The notes: generated from the sequence alone by a model not told the origin. A DNA stretch of 64,000 nt from Escherichia coli (GCF_041248615.1 NZ_CP158426.1); one strand, 5' to 3'. Counted from the first letter of the stretch, positions 48,577 to 53,309 are shown. Made by a program: numbers and translations.

Positions 48577-48983
48577 GTGAAAAGGTGGTGTTCAGTCAAC
48601 TGAGCCGTAAATTTATTGATGAGAACGATGCCACGCCCGCCGAGGCGCAGCAGGTGGTCTATTACAGCCTGGCGATTGGTCACCACCTTGGGGTTATCGA
48701 TTGCCTGGAAGCGGCGCTCACCTGTCCGTGGGATGAATATCTGGCATGGATTGCCACTCTGGAGGCGGGCAGCGAAGCCCGCCGCAAAATGGAAGGCGTG
48801 CCGAAATATGGTGAGATCGTCATCGACATTAACCATGTGCCGATGCTGGCCAACGCATTCGATAAAGCCCGGGCTGCGCAAACTTCGCAGCAGAAAGAAT
48901 GGAGTACAATGCTGTTAAGTATGCTGCATGATATTCATCAGGAAAACGCCATCTATTTGATGGTGAGGAGATTGCGTGACTGA
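48573..48983 (+). CDS. hycH: formate hydrogenlyase maturation protein HycH
   Basis: 136 aa; operon position. Confidence 0.9.
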
Positions 48984-49446
48984 CGTTTTACTCTGTGTTG
49001 GCAATAGCATGATGGGCGATGATGGCGCAGGTCCGCTGCTGGCGGAAAAGTGTGCCGCCGCGCCGAAAGGTAACTGGGTGGTGATTGACGGCGGTAGCGC
49101 ACCGGAAAACGACATCGTCGCTATTCGCGAACTGCGCCCGACACGACTGTTGATTGTCGACGCCACGGATATGGGGCTAAACCCCGGCGAGATCCGCATC
49201 ATCGATCCGGATGATATCGCCGAGATGTTTATGATGACTACCCATAACATGCCGTTGAACTACCTTATCGACCAGTTGAAAGAAGACATTGGCGAAGTGA
49301 TTTTCCTCGGCATCCAGCCGGATATCGTCGGCTTTTACTACCCGATGACCCAGCCGATTAAAGACGCCGTAGAAACCGTTTATCAACGACTGGAAGGCTG
49401 GGAAGGGAATGGCGGATTCGCGCAGTTAGCGGTGGAAGAAGAGTAG
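48976..49446 (+). CDS. hycI: hydrogenase 3 maturation protease
   Basis: 156 aa; N-terminus VLLCVGNSMMGDDGAGP typical of hydrogenase maturation endopeptidases. Confidence 0.92.
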   Translation: MTDVLLCVGNSMMGDDGAGPLLAEKCAAAPKGNWVVIDGGSAPENDIVAIRELRPTRLLIVDATDMGLNPGEIRIIDPDDIAEMFMMTTHNMPLNYLIDQLKEDIGEVIFLGIQPDIVGFYYPMTQPIKDAVETVYQRLEGWEGNGGFAQLAVEEE

Positions 49447-49506
49447 TTCGTAGACAAACATGTTCACGTTTTGGAATTTGGACGTGCAATTGTGACGTGT
49501 AGACAG

Positions 49507-49527
49507 GTGTTTACATATTGTGAACAC
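49507..49527. promoter_or_regulatory. imperfect palindrome GTGTTTACA-N3-TGTGAACAC; candidate antitoxin operator
   Basis: 9-bp arms with one mismatch, about 85 nt upstream of the HigB-like ORF; a related GTTCAC half-site lies at 49462-49467. Confidence 0.35.
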
Positions 49528-49612
49528 CCGTGTGATCAACTACTATAGAAAAATAAATCCGAAGGAATGGTAGTCCAGGTTTAGTCATTCAGGCGCTAAT
49601 AAGGAAGTTAAA

Positions 49613-49924
49613 ATGCACATCATTTCGAAAGCGCCATTTGAAGAGTGTGCGCGCAAATATCCTAACGACGCTCTGGCTCTACACTCATTGTATCGGGTTA
49701 TTAAGGAAACGGATTTTTCTACACCAGAAGAAATGCGAACGGCGTTTCCTAACCTCGACAATTTTAAATATCGCAACAAATGGTACGTTCTGGATGTCGG
49801 CGGGAACAATCTTAGGGTTATTGCCTACATAAACTTTGTTAATAAGCGGTTCTTTGTGAAGCACATAACGAATCACGCAGAGTATGACAAACTGACACGT
49901 TACTACAGAGAGAACAAAGAATGA
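49613..49924 (+). CDS. HigB-like type II toxin (RelE/ParE superfamily mRNA interferase)
   Basis: 103 aa; alignable by eye to K-12 HigB as I recall it (shared ...KYP...FPSLDNFKY...GGNELRVVA... pattern); AAGGAAG RBS. Confidence 0.8.
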   Translation: MHIISKAPFEECARKYPNDALALHSLYRVIKETDFSTPEEMRTAFPNLDNFKYRNKWYVLDVGGNNLRVIAYINFVNKRFFVKHITNHAEYDKLTRYYRENKE

Positions 49925-50340
49925 CTGCTAATGCTGCACGCGCTGTTAAAGCAACAAGAGAACTGGTCAATGCAGTCCCCTTTCTGGGAGGCAGTGACTC
50001 AGAAGATGATTATCGTGAAGCACTGGAACTGGTCGAATATTTGATTGAAGAAGATGACACCAATCCACTTATCGACTTTCTGGCGAGCCGCATTGCAGAA
50101 TATGAAAACAACAACGAAAAGTTTGCAGAGTTCGACAAAGCCGTTGCAGCAATGCCGGTTGGCGTGGCGTTACTTCGTACGCTGATTGATCAACATAATT
50201 TGACCTATGCGGATTTGAAGAACGAAATCGGCTCTAAATCTCTGGTCAGTCAGATTTTGTCTGGGCAACGATCCCTGACGATATCCCATATTAAGGCACT
50301 TTCAGCCCGATTTGGCGTTAAGCCGGAATGGTTTCTTTGA
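49921..50340 (+). CDS. HigA-like antitoxin (XRE-family HTH)
   Basis: 139 aa; 4-nt ATGA overlap with the toxin gene; resembles K-12 HigA as I recall it (AVPFLGG, GSKSLVSQILSGQRSLT). Confidence 0.8.
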   Translation: MTANAARAVKATRELVNAVPFLGGSDSEDDYREALELVEYLIEEDDTNPLIDFLASRIAEYENNNEKFAEFDKAVAAMPVGVALLRTLIDQHNLTYADLKNEIGSKSLVSQILSGQRSLTISHIKALSARFGVKPEWFL

Positions 50341-50366
50341 TTTTGACTGATGCCAAACCCAAGATT

Positions 50367-50391
50367 GCCCGATGCGCAACGCTTATCGGGC
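50367..50391. terminator. hairpin between convergent higA-like gene and ascB
   Basis: Perfect 7-bp stem GCCCGAT/ATCGGGC with 11-nt loop followed by TTTCCTGGTT. Confidence 0.4.
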
Positions 50392-50418
50392 TTTCCTGGT
50401 TCGTGCGACGGTAGTTAC

Positions 50419-53309
<2,891 letters not shown>

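Follow-up and report, generated by a model that had tools for sequence, protein, structure and literature searches.

Two relatives of the gene pair described here have been studied. In Salmonella, the HigB-like toxin SehA (STM4031) is paired with the antitoxin SehB (STM4030). According to a report on SehA, alanine substitution at Y53, D61, H88, Y91, K93, T95, Y97 or Y98 abolishes toxicity, R54 and K56 are dispensable, and the toxin, reportedly without ribonuclease activity, inhibits RNase III by binding its dsRNA-binding domain (PMC12817084). The passage on a ribonuclease test in that report describes purified tagged protein and naked total RNA in the absence of ribosomes (PMC12817084), a design that leaves room for ribosome-dependent cleavage by SehA. 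On the antitoxin side, eight SehB residues are needed for repression (PMC7160566). In E. coli K-12, HigB cleaves translated mRNA in vivo, and the higBA operon is autoregulated by HigA through palindromes upstream of the toxin gene, with an induction that depends on Lon (PMC2814082). A more distant point of comparison is PD-lambda-2, a system of three genes in which A is HigB-like, B is an Xre-peptidase fusion and the toxic component, and C is required for defence (Vassallo et al. 2022).

The gene pair between hycI and ascB

The window analysed here is a 64,000-nucleotide stretch of E. coli DNA. Its hycI-ascB gap, at 49447-50418, is flanked by the stop codons of hycI (49446) and ascB (50419) and contains two ORFs on the plus strand, both with ATG starts, as identified from the ORF listing and the raw sequence. 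The genes of the locus are:

48976-49446, plus strand: hycI, left neighbour of the gap
49601-49607, plus strand: Shine-Dalgarno-like AAGGAAG, 5 nt 5′ of the toxin ATG, as read from the sequence
49613-49924, plus strand: toxin gene, 103 aa, HigB_toxin family PF09907, SehA-like clade
49921-50340, plus strand: antitoxin gene, 139 aa, HigA/SehB type
50419-51855, minus strand: ascB, right neighbour, convergent with the antitoxin gene

An earlier note on this DNA had described two overlapping ORFs of 103 and 139 aa with a 4-nt ATGA overlap, and this is what the sequence holds, with the common ATGA at 49921-49924. The G+C content is 42-46% in the hycI-ascB interval as compared to 50-62% for the hyc and asc genes on either side.

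The homology of both products excludes chance ORFs. The 103-aa protein matches the Pfam profile HigB_toxin (PF09907, E=4.6e-23, model positions 4-73 of 74), which was the only profile found when domains were listed to an independent E of 10, and a phmmer comparison with all PDB sequences returned solely HigB of K-12 and Shigella (5IFG_A, 6KML and 5YCL; E about 1e-21), aligned end to end and with 5IFG_A as the top match (E=7e-22). The 139-aa protein carries an XRE-type HTH_3 domain at residues 85-138 (Pfam, E=7.9e-9), and its PDB matches are solely HigA (5IFG_B and 5YCL_A; E about 3e-35), again end to end, the top match being 5IFG_B (E=2.5e-35, residues 9-138). With 39-58% identity to characterised and solved homologues, we regard fold and family as settled. 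The locus thus combines the toxin profile, a toxin-first order and an antitoxin homologous to HigA, which places it in the HigB(PF09907)/HigA family; the alignment to HigB/HigA and to family profiles that the earlier note had proposed bears out its reading of a toxin-first, HigB/HigA-like type II pair. We rejected membership in the HigB family of plasmid Rts1 and Proteus vulgaris, which is a Pfam family other than PF09907, because the toxin matched PF09907 alone. As the best explanation of the locus, we hold it to be very likely that the two genes form an intact type II toxin-antitoxin operon on the chromosome, from the HigB(PF09907)/HigA family and in one clade with Salmonella SehAB.

The suspicion that the pair may not be annotated turned out to be wrong, as RefSeq/PGAP already names the toxin (WP_000547555.1, or WP_000547564.1) 'type II toxin-antitoxin system HigB family toxin' and the antitoxin (WP_000126294.1) 'helix-turn-helix domain-containing protein'. 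NCBIfam gave no meaningful match and no curated equivalog for either window protein, a full-text literature search with the RefSeq protein accessions of the pair found no paper, and a literature search for hycI and ascB together with toxin-antitoxin returned nothing relevant. In its modest meaning, the locus is one more chromosomal toxin-antitoxin module in the E. coli accessory genome, already recognised by automated annotation, with an ordinary architecture and a place in a known family.

SehAB is similar to the window pair in several respects. SehA also has 103 aa, is 58% identical to the window toxin over its full length without gaps, and shares with it all eight residues at which alanine substitution abolishes toxicity (8/8 identical). 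In both systems the toxin gene comes first and is overlapped by the antitoxin gene. SehB has an N-terminal dimerisation and toxin-binding domain followed by a C-terminal HTH, and we predict the same layout for the window antitoxin, with an N-terminal part for toxin binding and dimerisation and a C-terminal XRE helix-turn-helix. The eight SehB residues tested for repression, Y32, L42, L52, I60, S107, L121, L129 and F140, correspond to Y31, L41, L50, I58, S105, L119, L127 and F138 of the window antitoxin, and these eight positions are invariant in an alignment of the window antitoxin, SehB, K-12 HigA and others. The promoter of sehAB is surrounded by 17-bp palindromes, two of them 38 bp apart, which is also the layout found in orthologues of the window pair. 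The two systems differ in that antitoxin identity is only 45%, in the operator, with GTTTTCAAnTTGAAAAC palindromes in Salmonella sehAB and GTTTACATATTGTGAAC in the window, in the number of sites, with a single operator copy in the window as opposed to the two-site sehAB promoter, and in location, with sehAB between fdhE and yiiD and the window pair between hycI and ascB. For this comparison we took the sehAB locus from a contig of Salmonella Infantis, on which LT2 locus tags are given in the annotation notes. With neither locus nor operator in common, the pairs are not orthologous by position.

K-12 HigB/HigA (YgjN/YgjM; 5IFG, 6KML) resembles the window pair in its PF09907 toxin, architecture and gene order, and provides the best solved-structure match. 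It differs in sequence, with 39% identity for the toxin and 46% for the antitoxin, as well as in having two TTGCCA-N5-TGGCAA-type operators and a locus between rlmG and fadH. The window genes had been called paralogues of the K-12 pair. Their homology stands, but a paralogous relationship applies to the species pangenome and not necessarily to this genome: in one genome, with a hycI-ascB interval 100% identical to that of the window, rlmG and fadH are 117 bp apart, which leaves the canonical site without K-12-type higBA. Over the 5426 complete E. coli genomes that we used for counting, K-12-type higBA is intact in 2825 and toxin-truncated in about 1500. The choice of K-12 HigB/HigA as the reference is likewise sound as far as homology goes, but among the studied relatives SehA is nearest to the toxin, and SehA is reported to act on RNase III and not by cutting mRNA (PMC12817084).

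The upstream palindrome, the putative promoter and the proposed toxin action

Upstream of the toxin gene, we recognised the following features:

49449-49612, plus strand: leader and promoter region of the cassette, 160-bp version
49509-49525, no strand assigned: 17-bp palindrome GTTTACATATTGTGAAC, an inverted repeat and putative HigA operator (distal site O1)
49518-49546, plus strand: putative sigma-70 promoter, with a -35 TTGTGA (49518-49523), a 17-nt spacer and a -10 TACTAT (49541-49546)

The inverted repeat around GTTTACATATTGTGAAC can be extended to 49503-49531. When the family consensus GTTYACATAWTGTRAAC was searched with up to 2 mismatches, GTTTACATATTGTGAAC was the 1 match in the 64-kb window, as compared to 0.05 expected by chance. 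One or two copies of the palindrome are located upstream of the toxin gene in orthologues from Leclercia, Mangrovibacter, Kluyvera, Pluralibacter, Citrobacter, Pantoea, Mixta and Photorhabdus, and copies that depart from the strict consensus occur in Rahnella. Because the palindrome recurs upstream of all but one of the aligned orthologues in other Enterobacterales, we consider it the likely antitoxin operator. The usual layout in these orthologues is two palindromes 38 bp apart with a TATAGT -10 between them. The chromosomal versions in E. coli have one of these two ancestral operator sites, the promoter-proximal site having been lost, and a longer leader. We infer that the window, sehAB and K-12 higBA lineages have orthogonal DNA specificities.

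E. coli has two very different regions upstream of the toxin gene. The window and JS316-type versions are about half identical outside a core of 19-23 nt, which is their sole common block and in which the palindrome is perfectly kept. A simple deletion in the JS316-type leader cannot account for the window leader, since only this operator core aligns convincingly; the window-type leader, which is found in 343 of the 5426 genomes in its 160-bp form, may have arisen by recombination with a diverged allele. Other strains with the toxin carry a different upstream region, with a 251-aa ORF before it.

The promoter at 49518-49546 was placed from the sequence together with the alignment of orthologues, in which the TATAGT -10 comes after O1. 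Its -35 would sit in the right half of the palindrome. We consider this promoter plausible, if weak: it agrees with the consensus at 8/12 positions, under the 9/12 threshold of a consensus scan that picked up no promoter ahead of the toxin gene. A terminator scan gave two terminator-like sites, both within the antitoxin coding sequence and disregarded here, and none between hycI and the toxin gene, so that read-through from the hyc operon into the pair is possible.

We hypothesize that the pair works as follows. The toxin gene would be translated first, with the antitoxin translationally coupled to it through the ATGA overlap. The N-terminal domain of the antitoxin is predicted to bind the toxin, and an antitoxin dimer would repress the operon by binding GTTTACATATTGTGAAC where it overlaps the -35. 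Once the antitoxin is depleted, which by analogy with K-12 higBA may occur through Lon, free toxin would stop growth via translation shutdown.

Shutdown could come about by ribosome-dependent mRNA cleavage, as for K-12 HigB, or by binding of RNase III and a block of rRNA maturation, as reported for SehA. We lean slightly towards the SehA-like route because the window toxin is closer in sequence to SehA, with 58% identity as opposed to 39% for K-12 HigB. The residues pull in both directions. K93, Y97 and Y98, three alpha-4 residues that SehA is reported to require, are kept in the window toxin, whereas K-12 HigB departs from the SehA-critical residues at 61, 93, 97 and 98 (F93, V97, H98), and the reported dispensability of R54 and K56 in SehA likewise speaks against a classical interferase. 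Conversely, H88, E90, Y91, D92, T95, R68 and K56 are invariant among K-12 HigB, SehA-like toxins and the window toxin, which is what would be expected if the toxin were a ribosome-dependent mRNA interferase like K-12 HigB, to which the RNase III route would not apply. That reading also has in its favour the shared Pfam family and fold template, the cutting of translated mRNA by K-12 HigB in vivo (PMC2814082), and the ribosome-free design of the SehA assay, as described in the passage mentioned above. We give it a little less than an even chance. As the closest E. coli relative of SehA, the pair could show whether RNase III inhibition reaches beyond Salmonella.

States of the locus across E. 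coli

Among the 5426 complete E. coli genomes, the toxin gene is present in 1091, about one in five, and the antitoxin gene in 2508, which by difference leaves about 1417 genomes with an orphan antitoxin. These make up about a quarter of E. coli genomes and include ST131-type strains. At hycI-ascB, the toxin and antitoxin genes are chromosomal without exception, with one copy per genome and none on plasmids, and in every sampled row of the 1091 genomes the toxin gene is labelled as an intact HigB family toxin. A survey of toxin-antitoxin systems in the E. coli pangenome lists clusters with the HigB_toxin domain and describes orphan antitoxins as abundant in phylogroup B2 (PMC10790755).

K-12 MG1655 has 158 bp and 0 genes between ascB and hycI. 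This agrees with the expectation in the earlier note that K-12 has no genes here, and the pair is absent from the site. Homology of the window to K-12 ends at 49448 and restarts at 50347. Comparing the hycI-ascB interval across strains, as had been suggested, uncovered more than simple presence or absence, with at least six deletion or replacement variants at this site. The states are:

JS316: hycI, a 251-253 aa signal-peptide ORF, higB, higA, ascB
SCU-112: JS316-like island, with a 145-aa ORF in place of the asc operon
Window: higBA alone, with a different leader
SMBL and FDAARGOS_1059: 251-aa ORF and orphan higA
M22546: 61-aa remnant and orphan higA, with the same truncated ORF in the ST131 strain EC958
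GmF046: 251-aa ORF alone
K-12: neither the 251-aa ORF nor higBA

Junctions were compared in a multiple alignment of JS316, GmF046, K-12, the window and the orphan classes. In the 158-bp gap of K-12, the 251-aa ORF is reduced to its leader and first bases, joined to approximately its last 25 nt, and a GGGATGT repeat is present at both ends of the deletion. Because both ends of the 251-aa ORF are left in it, the K-12 gap is the deletion scar of a larger variable island and not a virgin site, and the module in the window is one state of that island. The pair had been taken for an accessory insertion, of which the accessory part holds, with the toxin in 1091 of the 5426 genomes; a simple insertion into an empty K-12-like site is unproven, given that the two ends of the ORF persist in K-12. 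In the same junction comparison, which covered JS316, GmF046, K-12 and the window, the right edge of the cassette was located at:

50345-50351, no strand assigned: GACTGAT, right cassette edge

CTGA(C/T) bounds the higBA segment on both sides, the left edge being visible in strains that keep the 251-aa ORF, and such flanks could result from an insertion or equally from a deletion mediated by microhomology. Junctions differ between the two orphan-higA classes, which implies at least two independent losses of the toxin. Each loss took the promoter and operator along with the toxin gene and left higA and its ribosome-binding site in place.

The window alleles were compared with five other E. coli alleles, paired and orphan. 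For higA, there are 8-15 synonymous and 0 nonsynonymous differences from four of the five alleles, and 12 synonymous and 1 nonsynonymous from the SCU-112 allele; between distant alleles, orphan ones included, the counts are 13-15 synonymous and 0 nonsynonymous. Window higB differs from that of SCU-112 by 5 synonymous and 0 nonsynonymous changes, and from that of JS316 by 4 synonymous and 4 nonsynonymous changes, the latter at positions not known as critical. Judged by these substitutions, higB and higA both look functional, and the antitoxin seems to be retained also where the toxin is missing. The toxin is dispensable, and perhaps counter-selected, because about 1417 genomes have lost it by deletion while retaining the antitoxin. 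The locus offers a natural series, from the full island through the pair alone and the orphan antitoxin, produced by two deletions, to the empty K-12 scar, which could serve as a model for the loss of a toxin with retention of its antitoxin.

Mobile relatives and alternative roles of the pair

The closest homologues of the toxin are 73-80% identical and occur in other Enterobacterales chromosomes. Homologues of 60-80% identity are found on more than 500 plasmid records, mostly from Klebsiella. Phage tail genes occur on several of these 'plasmids', and a close relative is present in Cronobacter phage JK004, which identifies such elements as phage-plasmids. Pairs on phage-plasmids and plasmids (Enterobacter hormaechei p60214CZ_1, Cronobacter phage JK004 and Leclercia plasmids) are 77-79% identical to the window pair in the toxin and 74-78% in the antitoxin. 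Copies in P22-like Salmonella prophages, where they adjoin the repressor and Cro genes, are 67-69% identical in the toxin and 71% in the antitoxin. These mobile relatives have the same protein lengths and gene overlap as the window pair and a nearly identical HTH, and the operator consensus is one that the window pair also shares with its aligned chromosomal orthologues. They differ in being located on mobile replicons or prophages and in having two operator sites, whereas the E. coli copy is chromosomal, with one site and a longer leader. The window module descends from a lineage that is otherwise mostly found on phage-plasmids, plasmids and prophages of Enterobacterales. With an HTH this similar, cross-repression between the antitoxins of the window and of phage-plasmids is plausible, and they may perhaps cross-neutralise each other's toxins.

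These relatives bear on the question of whether the pair is still a working addiction or stress module, or a remnant in which the toxin is attenuated or poorly expressed and selection acts on the antitoxin, either for anti-addiction against phage-plasmid and plasmid modules or as a regulator. The high identity of the mobile antitoxins, with their near-identical HTH and the same operator consensus, would suit an anti-addiction role, and the idea of a remnant also fits with the many antitoxin-bearing genomes that have no toxin (about 1417 of 2508), with at least two independent deletions that removed toxin and promoter and spared higA with its ribosome-binding site, with the absence of nonsynonymous changes between distant higA alleles, and with the loss of the second operator site in E. 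coli. Against it, the window toxin is full length and has every family-invariant and SehA-critical residue, its gene is preceded by a good Shine-Dalgarno sequence and has only synonymous differences from the SCU-112 allele, and the sampled rows of the 1091 toxin-bearing genomes annotate the toxin as intact throughout. We find it distinctly unlikely that the pair in the window is such a remnant, and keep to an intact operon.

A broader proposal joins two of these threads, namely that the pair is the E. coli counterpart of SehA, inhibiting RNase III, and that the orphan antitoxin, persisting under purifying selection after independent losses of the toxin, is kept for a function of its own. One candidate function for the orphan would be immunity when plasmids or phage-plasmids, SSU5-like or other, bring in their addiction modules; another would be gene regulation, with read-through from the hyc operon as the driver. 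We regard this joint proposal as speculative and, on balance, rather unlikely to hold in both of its parts.

The pair also recalls PD-lambda-2, whose A protein is HigB-like and whose B protein is HigA-like at its N-terminus: with PADLOC, the toxin matches PD-Lambda-2_A (E=1.2e-15) and the antitoxin matches PD-Lambda-2_B (E=2.4e-14), in the latter case over the N-terminal 115 of 402 profile positions. It is nonetheless very improbable that the main role of the pair is anti-phage abortive infection as a relative of PD-lambda-2, even with these matches and with relatives in prophage immunity regions and on phage-plasmids, because PD-lambda-2 needs three components and the window has two genes, an antitoxin of 139 aa without a peptidase domain, and no third gene before ascB, which also led us to reject membership in that system.

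An Rfam scan of 49300-50600 gave no match at E<=1, indicating that there is no known RNA element in the leader or in the 3′ gap. That gap does hold one structured feature:

50367-50391, no strand assigned: G+C-rich hairpin GCCCGATGCGCAACGCTTATCGGGC in the gap between higA and ascB, which are convergent, RNA fold -26.6 kcal/mol, z = -2.6

The same hairpin is also present in the K-12 interval, and it belongs to the flank shared with K-12, outside the cassette.

The K-12 interval and a 251-253 aa ORF

The 158-bp gap between hycI and ascB in K-12 is the scar left by deletion of an ORF of 251-253 aa, and in the junction alignment both ends of the deletion carry a GGGATGT repeat.

L001 1916-2073: K-12 hycI-ascB gap; its window counterpart is 49447-49449 plus 50347-50418
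L006 1569-2330: region of the 251-253 aa ORF

This ORF is full length in 1463 of the 5426 complete E. coli genomes surveyed and partial in another ~837. Its N-terminus resembles a signal peptide, and searches of Pfam and PHROG returned no match in either.

Toxin loss and retention of the antitoxin

Junction comparison showed that the toxin gene and its promoter have been lost by two independent deletions, with the antitoxin gene left intact.

L004 1965-2035, L008 and L005 1990-2030: toxin-loss deletion regions

The resulting orphan antitoxin, present at hycI-ascB without a toxin gene, was found in ~1417/5426 genomes, ST131-type strains among them, and its alleles differ from that of the window by 8-15 synonymous and 0 nonsynonymous changes. 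In strains M22546 and SCU-112, an ORF of 142-145 aa stands beside the antitoxin gene in place of the whole asc operon, followed directly by hydN-hypF; it matches DUF4259 weakly (E=0.007).

L005 2541-2978 and L007 3323-3751: 142-145 aa ORF replacing the asc operon

Toxin erosion of the same pattern was observed at the K-12 higBA locus. When L003 1229-1956 (K-12 higBA) was searched in the E. coli genomes, the pair was intact in 2825, and at this locus ~1500 genomes retain higA with just the last quarter of higB. One genome matches the window exactly from hycI to ascB; it has no K-12-type higBA at rlmG-fadH (a 117-bp gap) and no mqsRA at ygiV-ygiS.

L037 (NZ_OW967178.1 670425-673697): rlmG-fadH locus of that genome
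L036 (741468-743666): its ygiV-ygiS locus

The window-type leader and mobile homologues

The region upstream of the toxin gene has a form that is present in 343 of the 5426 genomes.

49450-49609: window-type leader

Whereas the coding regions are 97% identical to those of other toxin-bearing E. coli, the leaders are only about half identical, with the divergence breakpoint 3 nt upstream of the toxin ATG. Recombination with a diverged allele is a possible origin of the window-type leader.

In P22-like prophages of Salmonella (L029-L034), close homologues of the window pair adjoin the genes for the repressor and Cro, and others lie among the tail genes of ~90-kb phage-plasmids (L038, L039), the carriers being Enterobacter p60214CZ_1 and Cronobacter phage JK004.
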